From: a virus
DNA length: 36,702 nt
Virus record (IMG/VR): IMGVR_UViG_3300045988_119983
Strand: one strand, 5' to 3'
Below are positions 6,552-36,702 of the stretch, piece after piece (position 1 is the first letter of the stretch; every line of letters starts with the position of its first letter). A program made the translations under genes and the position numbers. Under the pieces are notes generated by a model that made no database searches, was not told the DNA's origin, and saw only the letters and a program-made list of their open reading frames with translations.

Positions 6552-6803
6552 TTACTCGTCGATGTAGTCGCCTTCACCGACGTTGAGGCGCTCGGATGCT
6601 TCCTGGAGCTTTCCGACGATCTCGAGGTACAGGTCGCGCTTCTTGTCGATCGCCTCACGAGCGAGACGTCGGGCGGCGAGGTCATTGATCTGCTTCGTGA
6701 TCTCCAGATCCTCATCAGCGGTGAGCACCGTCTCCTGCGCGTCGTCTCGCAGTGCCTACACCTGAGCGGCGTCGAGATAGACCGCGATGTATCTGCCCTT
6801 CAC
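6552..6803 (-). CDS. 82-codon early ORF interrupted by an in-frame TAG (6756..6758)
   Basis: Own translation: VKGRYIAVYLDAAQV*ALRDDAQETVLTADEDLEITKQINDLAARRLAREAIDKKRDLYLEIVGKLQEASERLNVGEGDYIDE*. GTG 6803 overlaps the upstream stop (GTGA). GC3 is high on both sides of the TAG. Confidence 0.5.
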
Positions 6804-7126
6804 TTTCCCTCCTCCGTCTCGGTACCGACTTCATCAGCGGCCTGTAGGGGGTCGGCTATGGACGCGATCTTCTTTGCGAGCCGGTCGCGCACGTCGGCTG
6901 CGTCCAGGGCTGCGTCCAGGGCATCGATGATCTTCGCCATCGTCGTGTGCTCGCGGCTGAGGGTTATCTTCGCTACTTGGCGAGCTCTGTCGTTGTGCAT
7001 GATCTCGACGTTCTCGAAATCGACCTCGGCACTGATGCTCTCCTCGTACAGGAACTCGCGCAGGTAGAAAACGTCAGCTGCTTCGATGGTGAGCGTTACC
7101 GGGTTTTCGAGGTGCTTAGCGCTCAT
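6800..7126 (-). CDS. Hypothetical acidic protein (108 aa)
   Basis: ORF with an ATGA overlap to the upstream surface-protein gene. Confidence 0.6.
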   Translation of the reverse strand: MSAKHLENPVTLTIEAADVFYLREFLYEESISAEVDFENVEIMHNDRARQVAKITLSREHTTMAKIIDALDAALDAADVRDRLAKKIASIADPLQAADEVGTETEEGK

Positions 7127-8394
7127 CGGGCGGTCTCCTCTTCGTGCTTGCGCCCTTCCAGCAAGCGGAGGATGACGAGGCCAACGCCGATGCCGAAGGC
7201 GATAATTCCGACTGCGAGGACAACGCCGTCAGTGGTCGCGCCCGTCTTTGCGAGGCGCTCCTGCGGCGCGGGCGCTGCAGCCTGCTCAGGCTTCGGCGAG
7301 GGCTTCACAGTGTCCGGCGTCGGATCGGTCGTAGGAGTAGGCGTCGGGGTCGGCGAGGACTGCGGCTCATCCGAGGGAGTCGGAACCGGGGTCGGCTTCG
7401 GCGACGGCTTCGGGAGAGGAGACGGGACCGGCGCGGGGGTCGGCATGCTCGGGTCAGGCGTGGGGACCGGCGCGGGCTGAGGCTTGGTCTTGCCGTCGCC
7501 GTCGGTGCCGCCCGAGGCCTTGATCGTCGCGGTTGCCTCAAGGCTCTTGCCGTTGATCGTCGCTCGGTTGGTGTAGGCGTCCTGGCCCTCGACGTGAGGG
7601 GACGCAGCCGGGTACACGATGCAGACCAGCGAGCCGGCGGGCGGCGTGAACATCAGCGTGTGCGCGGACTCGTCGAGCGTGCCGTCGGTCCAGGTCGTCG
7701 TCGCCGGATCCCAGGTCGGGCCGGACGAACACTTCACGGCCTTCGGCAGAGCGTTCGTCTCGTCCGTCAGCGTGTAGGTCTTGCCAGCCTCTACGGCCCA
7801 CTTGATGCCCCAGCCGATCGACTGGTCCGCGTTGGTCCACCCGAACTTAATCGTCTCGGGAGCCGCGTACTCGAAGTGCGCGGGCGTCGAACAGTCGTTC
7901 GTGCAGGTGCCCGAGCCGTCACGGTCGCCCCAGACAAGCGTGCGCGTGACTTTGCCGTTCACGACGATCTGCGTGTCCTCAGTGCCGACTGCGGCGTCCG
8001 AGAGACGCGCGCGGGCATTGAAGTTTCCGGTCACGTCGGTCTTGTCCGCGTAGGACGCGGGAACCTCGGCGACCGTGCAGGTCAGAGTCGCCTCGTCGGC
8101 CTCGCAGTCGCCGATCTTGGTCCCGTCGTCGAGGACGAAGGGAAAGCCGGCATACCACTTGAAGCCGCCGTCCTTGCTGGCAACTGTGAAGTGCTGGCCG
8201 ACCGCGAGCTTCGGCGCGGACCAGGTTCCCTCGACGGTGACCTCACTCGAGGTCTGGCGGGAGGCGCTGGTCGCCTTGGTAACCTGCGCGGTCATGGCCG
8301 GTGCGGCCTCGTCGGCGGCGTATGCGGCGCCGTAGGGCAGCGCTAGGGCTGCGAGGGTGAGGGCAGCTCCTGCGGCCCAGATCTTCTTGTTCAT
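7123..8394 (-). CDS. Secreted, sortase-anchored (LAKTG) cell-wall surface protein with Pro/Thr-rich stalk
   Basis: Signal peptide MNKKIWAAGAALTLAALALPYGAAYA|AD, beta-rich body with paired Cys residues, PT-rich linker. C-terminus is LAKTG + hydrophobic helix + RLLEGRKHEEE. Confidence 0.8.
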   Translation of the reverse strand: MNKKIWAAGAALTLAALALPYGAAYAADEAAPAMTAQVTKATSASRQTSSEVTVEGTWSAPKLAVGQHFTVASKDGGFKWYAGFPFVLDDGTKIGDCEADEATLTCTVAEVPASYADKTDVTGNFNARARLSDAAVGTEDTQIVVNGKVTRTLVWGDRDGSGTCTNDCSTPAHFEYAAPETIKFGWTNADQSIGWGIKWAVEAGKTYTLTDETNALPKAVKCSSGPTWDPATTTWTDGTLDESAHTLMFTPPAGSLVCIVYPAASPHVEGQDAYTNRATINGKSLEATATIKASGGTDGDGKTKPQPAPVPTPDPSMPTPAPVPSPLPKPSPKPTPVPTPSDEPQSSPTPTPTPTTDPTPDTVKPSPKPEQAAAPAPQERLAKTGATTDGVVLAVGIIAFGIGVGLVILRLLEGRKHEEETAR

Positions 8395-8424
8395 TGGGGT
8401 TCCTTCTGTTCTTGGTGTTGGCGG

Positions 8425-8625
8425 TTAAGCGGATCGGCGAGGTTTCATCGGCGCGAGCGCCGACCGTGAGGGCTTGACCTCGACCGGATGGTGAGCGGCG
8501 CGGGCGCAGGCCTCCATGACCAGGCGATGCACACGCTCGTCGACGTGCGGTCGGTTTGCGTAGAGGATGTGTGCGCGGGCTATCGCGCGAGTGATCTCGA
8601 CATCGAGGGGAGGCGTCTCCTGCAT
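8425..8625 (-). CDS. Hypothetical protein (66 aa)
   Basis: ORF whose start overlaps the upstream stop by 1 nt. Confidence 0.5.
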   Translation of the reverse strand: MQETPPLDVEITRAIARAHILYANRPHVDERVHRLVMEACARAAHHPVEVKPSRSALAPMKPRRSA

Positions 8626-9011
8626 CAGGCCTTCACCTCCAGGCTCGGCTCATCGAGCCGCAGCACTTCGAGGGTCACGTGGATCTGCTGTCGGTCGAGA
8701 TCGACCGCGATCTTCGGCGTATCGAGCGCGTAGCAGTTGTTCAGCTCTGCCTCGATGATGACGTCCTGCGTCGCGAGGCAGATCAGGTGAGGCAGCGGGG
8801 CCTCGCCGTCCACGTCGTAGTAATCGAAGCCAACGTGCCGCTCGAGCAACGTCGTGCCCTTCGCGCGCGCCTTCGACGCGGAGCGCTGCATACGAGCGGC
8901 GATCTCCTCGATAGAGGCCGCGCGCGAGGCCCCTCGGGCTGCGATCCAGTCCAGCAGGACACAGCCCGCGAATAGCAGGAAAACGACCGTGACAATGATC
9001 GACGCGCTCAC
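8625..9011 (-). CDS. Membrane-anchored protein (about 128 aa from GTG 9011)
   Basis: GTGA overlap with the upstream stop. N-terminal TM segment SASIIVTVVFLLFAGCVLLDWIAA. Confidence 0.5.
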   Translation of the reverse strand: MSASIIVTVVFLLFAGCVLLDWIAARGASRAASIEEIAARMQRSASKARAKGTTLLERHVGFDYYDVDGEAPLPHLICLATQDVIIEAELNNCYALDTPKIAVDLDRQQIHVTLEVLRLDEPSLEVKA

Positions 9012-9220
9012 AGCCTGCCCGCCTTCCAGTCCGCACGAATCAGGACAACCGCGAGCGCGAGGAGGCCGAGGGCGGGGAAGAAGGTCCACTCAGGGAGGCC
9101 GTCTGGATTGTCGAGTCCGCGCATTGCGAAACCGAGGGTGAGGGCGGCGGCGAGGGAGGCACCTGCGATGAGGGTTCGCCAGGGCCGCAGGTGGCGGCGG
9201 CGTGTGGTACTCTGGTTCAT
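9008..9220 (-). CDS. Small two-TM membrane protein (70 aa)
   Basis: LIAGASLAAALTLGFA and FFPALGLLALAVVLI hydrophobic segments. Confidence 0.55.
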   Translation of the reverse strand: MNQSTTRRRHLRPWRTLIAGASLAAALTLGFAMRGLDNPDGLPEWTFFPALGLLALAVVLIRADWKAGRL

Positions 9221-9266: not shown

Positions 9267-9482
9267 CTACCGCTGGGAGCTCTTCTTTTCGCCGGAGCCG
9301 AGGCTCTGGCACTGGCGGTTGAGGTCGTCGCCGCTGTATCGGACGGAGCGCCCGATCTTGATCGCGGAGACCTTGCCCTCAACTCCGAGGCGCTCGACGG
9401 TCGAGCGCGAGAGGCTGAGCGTCTCCTGCACCTGCTGCGCTGAATACCAGCGGCCAGGTGCGAACGGGGATGCGGTTGTCAT
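9267..9482 (-). CDS. Excisionase-family (MerR-like) HTH DNA-binding protein
   Basis: RWYSAQQVQETLSLSRSTVERLGVEGKVSAIKIGRSVRYSGDDL. Confidence 0.65.
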   Translation of the reverse strand: MTTASPFAPGRWYSAQQVQETLSLSRSTVERLGVEGKVSAIKIGRSVRYSGDDLNRQCQSLGSGEKKSSQR

Positions 9483-9685
9483 TTTCTGAACACTGCCTTA
9501 TCGATCGCTTCGACGAGACGCTCACCAGCGGCGTAGGCAACATCAGCAAACGCTCCTAGTGCGTCTAGCGCTGCATCGAACGCGCGACCGGCGCAGACAG
9601 ACACGATGTAGCCAACACAGAAGAAAACCGGAACTCCTGCAACTACGAGAATCAGGAAGATGATCGCCTTGACAACGTCGCTCAT
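9479..9685 (-). CDS. Small membrane protein (68 aa)
   Basis: Start MSDVVKAIIFLILVVAGVPVFFCVGYIVSVCAG. The longer track ORF upstream of this start is off-frame overlap. Confidence 0.55.
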   Translation of the reverse strand: MSDVVKAIIFLILVVAGVPVFFCVGYIVSVCAGRAFDAALDALGAFADVAYAAGERLVEAIDKAVFRK

Positions 9686-9687
9686 AT

Positions 9688-10017
9688 CTACTCGTCCTCG
9701 GCGTAGATGCTGCCGTGCGACGCCTGGAGGATCACGACGCCGGACTGCTTGTCCTGGATTGCGAAGCCGCTCGGCTTCTGCGCTTCGGCGGCTGCGCGGG
9801 ACTCCGCTTGCTTGACAAGCTCGGAGGGCTGCACTTCGAGCGCAGCGGCAAAGGCGCACAGGTCGTCGACGTTGATACGCCGCGAGCGGTACCGGATCTT
9901 CCGGAGCACTCCGCTGTAGGAGAGGCCGGACTTCTTGCTGAGCTGCAGGAGCGAGATCCCGCGCGCTTCTGCGGAGGCCTCGATCACATCAGCTATCCCG
10001 ATTGGTATATATCGCAT
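9688..10017 (-). CDS. XRE-family HTH regulator, Cro-like (first gene of the early operon)
   Basis: Start MRYIPIGIADVIEASAEARGISLLQLSKKSGLSYSGVLRKI.... Divergent from the CI-like gene. Confidence 0.7.
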   Translation of the reverse strand: MRYIPIGIADVIEASAEARGISLLQLSKKSGLSYSGVLRKIRYRSRRINVDDLCAFAAALEVQPSELVKQAESRAAAEAQKPSGFAIQDKQSGVVILQASHGSIYAEDE

Positions 10018-10024
10018 ACCGCAT

Positions 10025-10053
10025 AACCTATGCCGATTGGCAACACTTGTCAA
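10025..10053 (-). promoter_or_regulatory. Early (lytic) promoter: -35 TTGACA, 17-nt spacer, -10 TAGGTT, leaderless geometry
   Basis: Minus strand reads TTGACA(10053-10048)-agtgttgccaatcggca-TAGGTT(10030-25)-atgcggt-ATG(10017). Confidence 0.6.
10031..10042. promoter_or_regulatory. Operator O1, TGCCgattGGCA
   Basis: Dyad half-sites TGCC/GGCA. Lies in the spacer of the early promoter and is part of a 19-bp arm (10029-10047) repeated in inverted form at 10069-10087 (17/19). Confidence 0.55.
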
Positions 10054-10059
10054 CTCGAC

Positions 10060-10089
10060 TTGCGTGCGAGTGTTGCCACTTGGCATACT
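10060..10089 (+). promoter_or_regulatory. Putative repressor promoter: TTGCGT, 18-nt spacer, CATACT, leaderless
   Basis: The -10 ends 6 nt before ATG 10096. Confidence 0.35.
10074..10085. promoter_or_regulatory. Operator O2, TGCCacttGGCA
   Basis: Same dyad, 43 bp centre-to-centre from O1. Overlaps the -10 of the putative repressor promoter. Confidence 0.55.
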
Positions 10090-10095
10090 TACCGC

Positions 10096-10350
10096 ATGGG
10101 AACGGCGACTCGGTATGTTGAGCTTGTGGCGTGTATTCTGCGCGAACTTGCTGATCGCAGGGGCCTCAGCGGGGCTGAGATCGCACGCCGCAGCGGCGTG
10201 TCTCAGGCGCAAATTTCGCGCATATTTACCGGAAAACGGACCATTAGTGTAGATCATGTCCTGGCCGTCGCCGAGGTACTCGGCGTGCGCGGCTCCGATG
10301 TTTTTGCCGAGGCTGAGCGCCGATTCCTCTCGGAACAGGCAGAGGCGTAG
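10096..10350 (+). CDS. XRE-family HTH repressor, CI-like (84 aa, no peptidase domain)
   Basis: Start MGTATRYVELVACILRELADRRGLSGAEIARRSGVSQAQISRIFTGKR. Same strand and block as the integrase. Confidence 0.7.
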   Translation: MGTATRYVELVACILRELADRRGLSGAEIARRSGVSQAQISRIFTGKRTISVDHVLAVAEVLGVRGSDVFAEAERRFLSEQAEA

Positions 10351-10999: not shown

Positions 11000-11003
11000 C
11001 ATA

Positions 11004-11034
11004 CCCCGGAGTCTCGTTGAGATTCCGGGGTTTT
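11004..11034 (+). terminator. Rho-independent terminator just 3' of the tRNA-like core
   Basis: ccccggagtct-cgttg-agattccgggg followed by tttt. Confidence 0.6.
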
Positions 11035-11106: not shown

Positions 11107-11113
11107 TTGCTAG

Positions 11114-11158
11114 TGGCGCATATGTGGCGCACGCAGTGGAAAAAGATTCTGCGCCACT
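11114..11158 (+). promoter_or_regulatory. Second pair of GTGGCGC repeats (11114, 11125) plus one inverted copy (11152-11158); candidate P' arm sites
   Basis: tagtggcgcatatgtggcgcac...tgcgccac. Confidence 0.45.
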
Positions 11159-11178
11159 TCCCCGACGAGGAGGCAGAT

Positions 11179-12336
11179 ATGAGCGGACGGAGAGCCTTCG
11201 GCTCGATCAGGAAAGCCCGCAGCGGGCGATTCGAGGTTCGCTACACAGGGCCCGACGGTGGCAAGTACACCGCCGGGAGATCTTTTATCCGCAAGACCGA
11301 CGCGAGTGCCTTCCTTGCACATGTCGAGGCCGAGATCAGCGAGGGTACCTGGACCAGCCCCAAAGAAGCCCGCGAGCGCGATCGCGTGCAGGAGGTCGCC
11401 GCCGAACGCGCGGCGATCACTTTCGCCGCCTGGTCGGAGAGGTGGCTCGCGTCGCTCGAGCGACTAGGCCGCACCCCTAAGACAATTCAGACGCACACCT
11501 ATCGGATGCGGCAGCTCGTCCCAGTGTTTGGTGCGAAGCCGCTCGGGTCGATCAGCGTCGAGGACGTCGATTCCTGGTATCAGCGCATCTGGGATGCCAA
11601 GGGGCCTGGCGTCGTGCGACCAATCTATATGACCTTGTCCGCGTGCATGAACGCCGCGGTGAAGGCGGGTCTCATCGCGGCGAGCCCCTGCAAGGTTCCC
11701 GAAGGGCAGAAGCATCGGCCCGTGCGCGAGCGCGAGCGACAGGTCGCGACACCCGAGGAGGTCCGCGCCGCCGCCGACGCAATGCCCGCACGCCTGCGCA
11801 TCGCCGTCCTTCTCGCTGCCTGGTGCCAAACCAGGCTCGGAGAGCTGATCGGCTTGCAGCGACGGGACTTCGATCTCTGCTCCACACCCGCGATAGTCCG
11901 GATCGAGCGGCAGGTGCAGTACCTGACTGGCGAGGGGCCTGTCGAGCTGCCCCCGAAGAGTGCCGCCGGCATCCGCGAGATCGTCATCCCCCCGTCGCTT
12001 GTCCCTACCCTGCGAGCGCACCTTGATTCCTACGTCGAGCCGGACGCTACGGCCTGGCTCCTCTGCTCTGAGCGCTCGGCCCGACTCCCGCTTCATCCGA
12101 ATACCCTCCGCAGGGCATGGGAACGCGCGCGCGAGGACGCCGGCATCCCTTGGCTTAAATTCCACGACCTCCGGCACACTGGCCTCACGATCTTCGCGCA
12201 GCAGGGCGCGACGCTTGCTGAGCTGCTTCACAGGGGCGGGCATAGTGATGTCGACGTTGCGCTGCGTTATCAGCATGCGACCCGCGAGCGCGATGCGGCC
12301 TTGACGTCGCGTATGGACTCGCGTGTCCTTATCTGA
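11179..12336 (+). CDS. int: Tyrosine integrase
   Basis: Start MSGRRAFGSIRKARSGRFEVRY (SD GAGGAGG). TRLGELIGLQRRD, HDLRHTGLT, GHSDVDVALRYQH (R..HxxR..Y). Confidence 0.9.
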   Translation: MSGRRAFGSIRKARSGRFEVRYTGPDGGKYTAGRSFIRKTDASAFLAHVEAEISEGTWTSPKEARERDRVQEVAAERAAITFAAWSERWLASLERLGRTPKTIQTHTYRMRQLVPVFGAKPLGSISVEDVDSWYQRIWDAKGPGVVRPIYMTLSACMNAAVKAGLIAASPCKVPEGQKHRPVRERERQVATPEEVRAAADAMPARLRIAVLLAAWCQTRLGELIGLQRRDFDLCSTPAIVRIERQVQYLTGEGPVELPPKSAAGIREIVIPPSLVPTLRAHLDSYVEPDATAWLLCSERSARLPLHPNTLRRAWERAREDAGIPWLKFHDLRHTGLTIFAQQGATLAELLHRGGHSDVDVALRYQHATRERDAALTSRMDSRVLI

Positions 12337-14022: not shown

Positions 14023-14922
14023 CTACGGATGCACGCGAGACGGGAACGATGCCATGAGGCCGGACGCTCCCTTTTCGAGCGCTGTACGCGCCTGTCCCTC
14101 GTTCGTGATGATGTGCGCGATCGTCGGACGCCCGGACGCGTTGATGCGGTTCCAGACGTCCGCGCTCGCGGACCACTCCATGCCGATTACATCCCACTGC
14201 TGTAGGTTCGCCGCGGGGACTTCGGCGGGGTAGAGCATTGCCATTGTGCGATAGCCGCGCGCTTTCGCTCGTGCCGCGCTCGTGCCCTTCGCAAAGACTT
14301 TCCAGATCACGCGACGCTCGGGATGCCCACCGAAAGCGGTGTCCAGGTACTCGAAGAGCTGCTCCTCAGCCTGCAGATCAGCCGTGTTCCGCTGATCCTC
14401 AGACGAGGTCGTCTTGTGGTCGATCGCCAGGACGACATCATCGGGGATCTGGTCGACGATATCCCGAAGCCGCATAAACGGCCCCGTGCCCTGCTGCAGA
14501 GTCCGCAGCGTGCTCCAGGGAGTAGACCAGATCGGCAGATCCGTCCCCGGGACCGTGCGAGTCGTTTTCCAGTCATGGATCGCGATAAACTCGGCAGGCT
14601 CTCCGTGCGGCCCCCGAGCGGAGAGCCGGACGGAGATCTCCAGCGCCTTGAAGCCCGCCCGGAGCGAGGCATCAAGACCCCGCTGCGTGAACTCCGGATA
14701 TTCTGTGCCGCTCATCCTATGGGCGATATAGAAGGGCCGTTGCCGCAGGAATTGCTCGACGACGTCCGTCGCGGCGGGCGTGACCGGAGTCGTCGCCTCA
14801 CGTCGACGCAGGAGAAGATCCCCTCCGTCGCGACGACGGCGACGCACGACCCCGGGCACGTCACCACCGTTGCGACGACGGCGATAGATCGTCAGCTCAG
14901 CCACGGGCGACCACCTGGACAC
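14023..14922 (-). CDS. Glycerophosphodiester phosphodiesterase (GDPD)-like protein with Arg-rich N-terminus; start uncertain
   Basis: FYIAHRMSGTEYPEFTQRGLDASLRAGFKALEISVRLS...FIAIHDWKTTRT resembles the GDPD pattern HR(G)..PENT...E.D....HD..RTT. Confidence 0.65.
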   Translation of the reverse strand: MSRWSPVAELTIYRRRRNGGDVPGVVRRRRRDGGDLLLRRREATTPVTPAATDVVEQFLRQRPFYIAHRMSGTEYPEFTQRGLDASLRAGFKALEISVRLSARGPHGEPAEFIAIHDWKTTRTVPGTDLPIWSTPWSTLRTLQQGTGPFMRLRDIVDQIPDDVVLAIDHKTTSSEDQRNTADLQAEEQLFEYLDTAFGGHPERRVIWKVFAKGTSAARAKARGYRTMAMLYPAEVPAANLQQWDVIGMEWSASADVWNRINASGRPTIAHIITNEGQARTALEKGASGLMASFPSRVHP

Positions 14923-36570: not shown

Positions 36571-36702
36571 TCAGTCGATGAGGCCGGGATGCTTGCGCTT
36601 TCGCGGCTGGTTTTTCTTCCGCTCAGCAGCGAGCGCCGCCGCAGCTTCCTGCTGCGTCTTACGTTTGTGATGCCAACGGCAAAGCCACTGGAGGTTCACC
36701 GC
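36571..36702 (-). CDS. HNH endonuclease, 3' part (stop TGA at 36571..36573)
   Basis: 44 codons ending ...AVNLQWLCRWHHKRKTQQEAAAALAAERKKNQPRKRKHPGLID*. The window end falls on a codon boundary and matches bases 1..55. Confidence 0.85.
   Translation of the reverse strand, partial: AVNLQWLCRWHHKRKTQQEAAAALAAERKKNQPRKRKHPGLID
36648..36702. repeat. 55-bp exact terminal direct repeat, copy 2
   Basis: Base-for-base identical to 1..55. Confidence 0.97.

Follow-up and report, generated by a model that had tools for sequence, protein, structure and literature searches.

IMG/VR record IMGVR_UViG_3300045988_119983 (36,702 nucleotides [nt]; hereafter the window, meaning the whole stretch of DNA analyzed) carried, in the early region of an xhp1-like phage genome, a gene for a 423-amino-acid (aa) surface protein precursor whose molecular identity is very probably that of a sortase-anchored adhesin of the MSCRAMM type. 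For the gene as a whole, a phage-carried, sortase-anchored MSCRAMM-type adhesin is the explanation that we favor, with somewhat better than even confidence; adhesion or aggregation as its selected role is argued by analogy and is offered tentatively, at a little short of an even chance. To judge from its sequence, the precursor bears every hallmark of a sortase substrate, including a class E-type LAxTG signal. In xhp1 (MG941013; host Schaalia odontolytica XH001), the homologous gene, XHP1_00038, was 87% identical to the window copy and was annotated as 'hypothetical protein' in the record, whereas UniRef named its product 'SDR-like Ig domain-containing protein'.

Domain architecture and predicted fold

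The N-terminus combined a positively charged n-region (MNKK), a hydrophobic h-region (IWAAGAALTLAALAL) and a c-region ending in an AXA motif (PYGAAYA, with AD on the far side of the predicted cut). It possessed neither a lipobox cysteine nor a twin arginine, and its sequence suggests a Sec type I signal peptide; a hydrophobic leader was present in 31 of 31 aligned homologs. An all-beta body of ~270 aa (residues ~33-300) was followed by a stalk of 78 residues, 63% of them Pro, Thr or Ser and 30 of them Pro, which was predicted to be disordered and differed in length between homologs. The C-terminus was ordered LAKTG-ATTDG-VVLAVGIIAFGIGVGLVIL-RLLEGRKHEEETAR, with basic residues (R410, R415 and K416) after the hydrophobic segment. 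In xhp1, the tail was a different allele that kept the RLLEG start. A sequence-only reading of the same DNA had proposed a Sec signal peptide cut between AYA and AD, a Pro/Thr stalk of 70 aa, and a LAKTG motif followed by a transmembrane helix and a charged tail. The n-, h- and c-regions with their AXA motif are indeed present, and the stalk was confirmed at a length of 78 residues by composition; the motif and helix also stood, but the tail is long and net neutral and not simply positive.

Sequence comparison gave little direct information on the body. The window protein had no significant match in Pfam, PHROGs, NCBIfam or PADLOC, and a sequence profile search against the Protein Data Bank (PDB) matched only Pro-rich, low-complexity stretches. 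A weak match to DUF7926 (E = 0.7) was set aside because its alignment fell on the wrong part of the protein. Other members of the family were more informative: 5 of 31 matched Pfam Big_8 (SDR-like Ig; best E = 9e-9), which provides a sequence link between the family and the MSCRAMMs, and one gave a weak match to Pfam Collagen_bind (E = 0.25).

An AlphaFold2 (AF2) model of the body (residues 30-304), built on 31 sequences, had a predicted local distance difference test (pLDDT) score of 89.8 and a predicted TM-score (pTM) of 0.76. Foldseek ranked S. aureus Cna (2f68) first in the PDB, with E = 3.8e-11 for the body-only model and 1.7e-13 for the full-length model, followed by Cnm of S. mutans, ClfB, SdrE, SdrG, FnBPA, Bbp, Srr1, UafA and Candida Als adhesins. 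Almost all of the top 30 matches were MSCRAMM or Als two-domain regions with a probability of 1.0, and query-normalized TM-scores to the MSCRAMMs were mostly 0.45-0.59, compared with 0.39 to RspB. The adhesin-like body of the sequence-only reading, for which comparison with Cna and other MSCRAMM folds had been suggested, was thus borne out, with Cna the best PDB match. Homology to a virion structural component, which had been named there as a refuting outcome, was found in neither PHROGs nor BFVD. In the BFVD viral structure library, the sole good match was a metagenomic siphovirus protein named 'Clumping factor'.

Six cysteines (97, 106, 164, 168, 222 and 258), conserved as three pairs, lay in the body. 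In the 31-sequence alignment C97, C106, C222 and C258 were invariant, and C164 and C168 were near-invariant, being lost together in three distant homologs. Further invariant residues of the first Ig-like (immunoglobulin-like) domain were W58, G66, T70, W80 and G123. In the second domain, K183, D211 and N276 were invariant in all 31 sequences, some with as little as 26% identity across the full protein, and were placed on the first strand (182-187), a middle strand (207-211) and the penultimate strand (273-280), respectively. CnaA-like isopeptide domains have an Ig-like fold in which a Lys on the first strand and an Asn on the penultimate strand are buried with a catalytic Asp, and the Collagen_bind reference structure 7LGR has the triad K177/D210/N291 (PMC12617251). 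As modeled, the K183/D211/N276 triad fits a putative isopeptide bond of the CnaA type. Since Cna-like domains can hold collagen in a 'collagen hug', a tail fiber of the phage was considered as a collagen-like ligand and rejected, as no collagen-like Gly-X-Y repeats were found in the phage.

Conservation of the sorting signal

Two homolog searches returned 240 close or moderate homologs; with a further clade of 119, the total was 359. Among the 240, the sorting signal was LAKTG in 228 and LPVTG in 11, and the remaining protein was truncated. All 119 members of the further clade also carried a signal (LAVTG in 82, LPVTG in 28, LAITG in 5 and LAKTG in 4), and more distant full-length members had LAHTG, LARTG, LPRTG, LASTG or LAQTG. 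Members with LPVTG had a canonical ARRR tail and matched Pfam Gram_pos_anchor (two family members). The window and xhp1 had different alleles of the membrane segment and tail (nonsynonymous substitution rate dN = 0.51), yet both kept LAKTG. Retention of the signal while the adjoining membrane segment and tail diverge indicates that the sorting signal is under selection. Class E sortases recognize LAXTG, and the housekeeping sortase SrtA of A. oris is a class E enzyme (PMC8225981); for S. odontolytica, sortase-anchored fimbriae and an adhesin have been predicted (bioRxiv 10.64898/2026.09.08.750141). The earlier assignment of the protein as a class E-type LAxTG substrate agrees both with conservation across the family and with the recognition described in the literature.

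Genome context

Positions 1-55 of the window were identical to positions 36648-36702, the overlap of a circular assembly, which identifies the window as a complete phage genome of ~36.65 kb, assembled as a circle, and not an integrated prophage. Its GC content was 65%. The first 25 kb of the window aligned with phage xhp1 across 89% of the query, with 89% identity, and gene order was the same in both. As the window is a complete xhp1-like phage genome, the adhesin gene is phage-encoded, as had been claimed from the sequence alone. Xhp1-like genomes possess an integrase and a repressor, which are genes of temperate phages.

The adhesin gene was the seventh in the Cro-side early operon (Table 1), which agrees with its earlier placement there. 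It began 30 nt after the gene upstream and had no adjacent terminator, and its stop codon overlapped the ATG of the next open reading frame (ORF; 6800..7126) in the ATGA from which translational coupling had been proposed. The same overlap was found in the xhp1 record, in the divergent phage L011 and on contig L017. Downstream, the operon continued with small unknown genes and genes for DUF4326, cytosine methyltransferase, RusA, single-stranded DNA-binding and HNH proteins. The position of the adhesin gene was the same in xhp1 and in the copy in the XH001 chromosome. The coupled ORF (minus strand) was highly variable among relatives, at 35-98% identity or absent, and it may form one variable module with the adhesin slot.

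Table 1. Features of the adhesin gene and its surroundings; positions refer to the window unless another locus is named
Feature	Position	Strand	Basis
Gene for 423-aa surface protein precursor	7123..8394	-	ORF list, ATG start; body dN/dS 0.14-0.21
Ribosome-binding site GAAGGA	8401..8406	-	6 nt upstream of ATG, read from sequence
Predicted signal peptide, residues 1-26, cleavage between AYA and AD	8317..8394	-	n/h/c architecture read from sequence
First Ig-like (N1/N2-type) domain, residues ~33-170, C97-C106 pair	7885..8298	-	AF2 pLDDT ~90; Foldseek: Cna, Cnm, ClfB, SdrG
Second Ig-like, CnaA-type domain, residues ~175-300, C222-C258 pair	7495..7872	-	Alignment; putative triad K183, D211, N276
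Pro/Thr/Ser-rich stalk, residues 301-378	7261..7494	-	Composition, low pLDDT, gapped alignment columns
LAKTG sortase recognition pentapeptide, residues 381-385	7240..7254	-	Sequence and conservation in homologs
Predicted membrane-spanning hydrophobic segment, V391-L409	7168..7224	-	Sole Kyte-Doolittle peak above 1.6; AF2 helix 389-413
Charged cytoplasmic tail RLLEGRKHEEETAR, residues 410-423	7126..7167	-	Sequence
ATGA stop/start overlap with downstream early gene 6800..7126	7123..7126	-	Sequence
66-aa protein, gene 6 of early operon, directly before adhesin gene		-	
N-terminally anchored protein, gene 5 of early operon	8625..9011	-	
Protein with two predicted membrane helices, gene 4 of early operon	9008..9220	-	
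HTH_17 protein, gene 3 of early operon	9267..9482	-	
68-aa predicted membrane protein, gene 2 of early operon	9479-9685	-	
Cro-like helix-turn-helix (HTH) gene, gene 1 of early operon	9688..9987	-	Gene calls on identical contig L017, weak HTH_26 match; xhp1 homolog has HTH_3
cI-like repressor, HTH_3	10030..10350	+	Pfam E = 1.5e-13; divergent from early operon
Integrase	11107..12336	+	Pfam matches; xhp1 annotation
Nanosynbacter chromosomal loci	L021:10001-11281, L012:10001-11407, L013:953-2359		

Genes 2, 4 and 5 of the operon, just upstream of the adhesin gene, encoded three small predicted membrane proteins. Pfam, PHROGs and PADLOC gave no match to any of the three, which may be cargo that acts in exclusion or modifies the envelope. 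On the plus strand, 3' of the cI-like repressor, a gene for a 153-aa protein was followed by the integrase, and between these two lay a hairpin (11003-11031, plus strand) with a 13-bp stem and a T run, which could be the terminator of the repressor operon or part of an attachment site. A glycerophosphodiester phosphodiesterase gene (14023-14922, minus strand), annotated as such in xhp1, was situated at the end of the late region beside the integrase; wall teichoic acid is a possible substrate of its product, or the gene may be lysogenic-conversion cargo. The complete XH001 chromosome (L020, CP040006.1 1660609-1681847) had host genes directly to the left of the 153-aa gene, at the place taken by the integrase in the phage record. 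Judged from this arrangement, the chromosomal copy looks like integrated xhp1 with its junction between the integrase and the 153-aa gene, whereas xhp1 has reportedly been published as a linear plasmid-like prophage. In the XH001 draft assembly (L018 and L019, LLVT01000004.1), the early region was tandemly duplicated.

Turnover of the adhesin slot

We located 41 xhp1-like loci in IMG/VR via the neighboring 128-aa gene. The adhesin slot was occupied in 37 of them, by three classes of allele, and empty in the other four, where the flanking genes lay ~60 nt apart. An xhp1-type allele (body identity 88-100%) held the slot in 33 of the 41 loci and a P0244-type allele (35-37% identity) in three, and the single remaining locus, L041, had an allele 77% identical to P0236, 72% to the type found in the salivary Caudovirus D_HF4_2 and 69% to an allele of Saccharibacteria. 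Between close relatives, the ratio of nonsynonymous to synonymous substitutions in the body was 0.14-0.21, indicative of purifying selection, and diversifying selection on the xhp1-type body is thus not supported. Purifying selection within the body together with swapped alleles implies that diversity arises by allele replacement and not by drift. The adhesin gene is dispensable, exchangeable cargo and not part of the replication machinery. The sequence-only reading had set the gene apart from typical morons, which is correct for its position within an operon but not for its behavior, with 4/41 slots empty and 4/41 holding swapped alleles.

Relatives in a second phage lineage and in Saccharibacteria

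The family as a whole was narrow, comprising 35 clusters at 50% identity, and was abundant in metagenomes of the human mouth (1,674 protein clusters at 90% identity). Outside xhp1-like phages, a copy was carried by D_HF4_2 (L009, OR148985.1; 38.7 kb, 51% GC) and ~120 related contigs of ~39 kb, with 57% body identity to the window protein (55% by tblastn). In D_HF4_2, the copy was located in the early and replication region, before the primase-polymerase, and all 47 of the 47 genes lay on one strand. An integrase or repressor was neither annotated in D_HF4_2 nor detected by Pfam among the 20 unnamed proteins scanned. Presence of the gene in a lineage with no recognizable integrase or repressor shows that it is not confined to recognizably temperate phages. 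Metagenomic bins containing D_HF4_2-related contigs were variously labeled Rothia, Atopobium or Actinomyces. The early region of D_HF4_2 (L009:16180-20300) contained repeated units in which a terminator-like hairpin (7-8 copies, in two sequence variants) preceded the promoter-like box TATAATGAGAAC (6-8 copies); upstream of the adhesin gene lay the hairpin and a ribosome-binding site without the promoter box. Directly after it, L009:21583-22029 matched Pfam Phage_TAC_17 ('tail assembly chaperone'; E = 8e-27) even though it lies in the early region, and the family name may be misleading for this gene.

Distant members of the family (P0249, 33-35% identical) were chromosomal in Actinomyces, with a GC content equal to that of their flanks (68%). 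The nearest chromosomal relatives, P0242-type and P0211-type genes, were instead situated between rplA and rplJ on contigs of 43-46% GC and up to 797 kb. They were 42-55% identical to the window body and up to 82-87% identical to D_HF4_2 phage alleles. Flanking genes for NusG, L11, enolase and a glycosyltransferase gave exact or at least 90% matches to proteins of Candidatus Nanosynbacter, TM7 oral taxon 352 or HMT-352. Within these Saccharibacteria, the adhesin gene was GC-foreign (55-61% against 43-44% for the flanks) and hypervariable: in two of the loci, the flanks were 91-94% identical in DNA over 9.4 kb, whereas the adhesin bodies were ~50% identical.

The P0211 allele (65 cluster members, on contigs of up to 726 kb) was 82-87% identical in protein and 80% identical in DNA to genes of D_HF4_2-clade phages. 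This similarity reached ~55 nt upstream and included a hairpin, CCTATAACCC-N6-GGGTTATAGG-CTTT, of which D_HF4_2-type phages had 7-8 copies in their early regions. The same hairpin occurred once per Saccharibacteria locus, directly upstream of the adhesin gene (in L021, at 9951-9976), and nowhere else in the DNA examined. A shared allele accompanied by an otherwise phage-specific hairpin suggests transfer from phage to epibiont, and the simplest reading of these sequences is that a D_HF4_2-type phage, or a close relative, was the donor to Nanosynbacter chromosomes. Either infection or uptake of free DNA would fit as the route. By sequence comparison, then, xhp1-like phages, D_HF4_2-like phages, Actinomyces chromosomes and Saccharibacteria chromosomes appear to share one pool of adhesin genes. 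This sharing with a second phage lineage and with Saccharibacteria was missed by the sequence-only reading and changes which roles merit testing. The link to Saccharibacteria is the part that a specialist would find surprising: the shared pool and the trace of phage transfer bear on which surface proteins mediate contact between epibiont and host, and on which phages exchange DNA with the ultrasmall Saccharibacteria. The gene exchange with Nanosynbacter makes D_HF4_2 a candidate for a phage interacting with Saccharibacteria.

Proposed mechanism and alternative roles

We postulate that, as gene order suggests, infection or induction of the prophage leads to transcription of the adhesin gene along with the early genes on the Cro side. 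The precursor would be exported by Sec and, from its sequence, lose its signal peptide after AYA, while the C-terminal sorting signal would keep it in the membrane. Given the motif and established knowledge of sortases, a housekeeping class E sortase of the host would cut between the Thr and Gly of LAKTG and join the Thr to the peptidoglycan precursor lipid II. The 78-residue Pro/Thr stalk would then span the wall and display the two-domain Ig-like ligand-binding region, which would be stiffened by three disulfides and probably also by a K183-N276 isopeptide bond. By analogy with known adhesins, the displayed domain may recognize a protein ligand exposed by an oral surface or by neighboring cells, and cells with active phage might consequently stick or aggregate. 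Carriage of xhp1 enhances biofilm formation by XH001, according to the work cited to that effect in PMC13578794, and the adhesin gene is a candidate for this reported effect of the prophage. XH001 is the model host of the first cultivated Saccharibacterium, and its prophage xhp1 is experimentally tractable.

Several points weigh against this account. The authors of the xhp1 biofilm study reportedly attributed the effect to released DNA and not to an adhesin. A gene of the early operon would be silent in a repressed lysogen, and any colonization benefit would need leaky or induced expression. Early co-transcription is itself read from spacing and gene order, and a scan for sigma-70 promoters on both strands of 6.5 kb returned nothing, not even where early promoters must lie, which means that the scan had no power in a genome of 65% GC and is uninformative, and not negative, on the lack of a promoter of its own noted in the sequence-only reading. 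The protein ligand is postulated by analogy, and the existence of a class E sortase in the host is taken from the literature on related species. The tail is net neutral (4 basic and 4 acidic residues) and unusually long for a sorting signal. Because neither a protein family nor a solved structure was matched by sequence, the assignment as an adhesin depends on predicted structure and transitive homology, and the isopeptide bond and the disulfides are likewise predictions.

Two other roles were considered. One, which we consider unlikely, is superinfection exclusion or receptor masking, in which an early wall-anchored protein would cover or bind the receptor of xhp1-like or competing phages, or trap their tail proteins. 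By analogy with the Llp lipoprotein of T5, the infected cell might be protected and progeny might not be lost on debris, an outcome to which we assign the same low likelihood. Placement of the gene early in its operon, after three small predicted membrane proteins, would suit such a role, and the marked diversity of alleles and turnover of the slot are in keeping with an arms race. Its presence in the one-strand D_HF4_2 lineage without a detected integrase argues for a role in lytic growth. Saccharibacteria, which are bound by Xhp1 particles (PMC13578794), have moreover captured the gene at a hypervariable locus. Set against this, no family in PADLOC or PHROGs resembled the protein or its neighbors, the fold is one used by adhesins to bind proteins of the host or the matrix, and the native chromosomal homologs of Actinomyces look like ordinary surface proteins. 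To our knowledge, Gram-positive exclusion proteins are lipoproteins or membrane proteins and not sortase substrates. The other role, which we regard as quite improbable, is modulation of epibiont attachment, with the phage-displayed protein sharing its binding specificity with the Saccharibacteria homolog. It might then occupy a ligand on the Schaalia surface and block attachment or, just as doubtfully, tether epibiont and host to each other and in this way influence how phage, host and epibiont interact. That the nearest chromosomal relatives are GC-foreign, hypervariable, sortase-signal-bearing genes of Nanosynbacter points in this direction, as does the allele of the xhp1-type backbone L041 with its 69% identity to that of Saccharibacteria. 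Association with TM7x induces Xhp1, whose particles bind TM7x (PMC13578794), and close-range surface adhesins have been proposed for the binding of TM7x to its host (PMC11623550). This argument is, however, purely comparative; gene flow among oral organisms living together, all of which would gain from a general adhesin, could account for the sharing, and the reported determinants of TM7x binding are host glycans and not proteins (PMC11623550). A broader and quite unlikely version makes the adhesin a weapon or handle shared among oral Actinomycetes, phages and Saccharibacteria epibionts, with D_HF4_2-like phages infecting, or delivering DNA into, Saccharibacteria. If this were true, prophage induction triggered by epibiont attachment would yield a protein that blocks or redirects that attachment, and D_HF4_2-like phages would have given Nanosynbacter chromosomes an allele together with their own intergenic hairpin.

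Two further readings were rejected. It is extremely unlikely that the gene product is virion-associated or structural, in a capacity such as decoration or receptor binding. Phage particles often bear Ig-like domains, and some metagenomic homologs have annotations such as 'host cell-surface attachment protein', which we consider misleading. A cleavable secretion signal and a wall-sorting signal are, however, incompatible with assembly in the cytoplasm, and the structural module is distant from the early region in which the gene is situated. Virion proteins in PHROGs and BFVD showed no significant similarity to the gene product, the slot was empty in 4/41 relatives, and chromosomal homologs exist outside prophages. 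A subunit of a sortase-assembled pilus is very unlikely, even though CnaA-type domains, isopeptide bonds and sorting signals occur together in Actinomyces pilins as well. The YPK pilin motif is absent (the sequence reads VYPAASPH), and LAxTG points to a housekeeping enzyme and not to a polymerizing class C sortase. Foldseek also ranked MSCRAMM two-domain regions above pilins. No linked sortase is annotated in the xhp1 record and none was found among the neighboring ORFs scanned against Pfam, a search that did not extend systematically across the window for a sortase or partner pilin.

Comparison with known systems

Sortase-anchored adhesins and prophage-borne surface proteins are both already known, and the window family has been annotated only as hypothetical. 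The 2026 PNAS study of Xhp1 mentions neither the adhesin gene nor a sortase, and a literature search on Actinomyces phages and sortase signals (LPXTG) returned no paper linking the two. The closest structural counterparts are the MSCRAMMs (Cna of S. aureus, Cnm of S. mutans, SdrG and ClfB), which share with the window protein a signal peptide, two tandem Ig-like domains, a low-complexity stalk that spans the wall and a sortase signal, and which were the best PDB matches to its body. Lys, Asp and Asn also occupy corresponding positions in the collagen-binding domain of Cna (7LGR, K177/D210/N291) and in the window protein (K183/D211/N276). For the window protein itself, no sequence similarity to MSCRAMMs was detectable. 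The window family differs from them in its three conserved putative disulfides, which would be unusual for MSCRAMMs of Firmicutes, in LAxTG in place of LPXTG, in the lack of B repeats or Ser-Asp repeats, and in being carried by phages.

Among phage-borne proteins, SasX, encoded by a prophage of S. aureus and S. epidermidis, is likewise sortase-anchored (LPXTG) and is reported to promote colonization and aggregation of its bacterial host. Its fold and family are unrelated, its hosts belong to another phylum, and its LPXTG signal is of the kind handled by a class A sortase. Unlike SasX, the gene described here lies inside an early lytic operon and occurs also in a lineage without a recognizable lysogeny module. 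Llp of T5 and Ltp of S. thermophilus phage are small cargo genes expressed early, with products anchored at the cell surface, and to that extent they are comparable with the window gene; they differ in that the anchor is a lipid and not sortase-dependent, and they have no sequence or structural similarity to the window protein. Known class E substrates, such as the chaplins of Streptomyces and the SrtA-anchored proteins of A. oris, share with it LAXTG, a membrane segment, a basic residue and a high-GC Gram-positive host. They are chromosomal housekeeping or developmental proteins, whereas the window gene is mobile cargo and, unlike theirs, its signal has switched to LPVTG in 11 of the 240 phage-clade homologs and in part of the Saccharibacteria clade.

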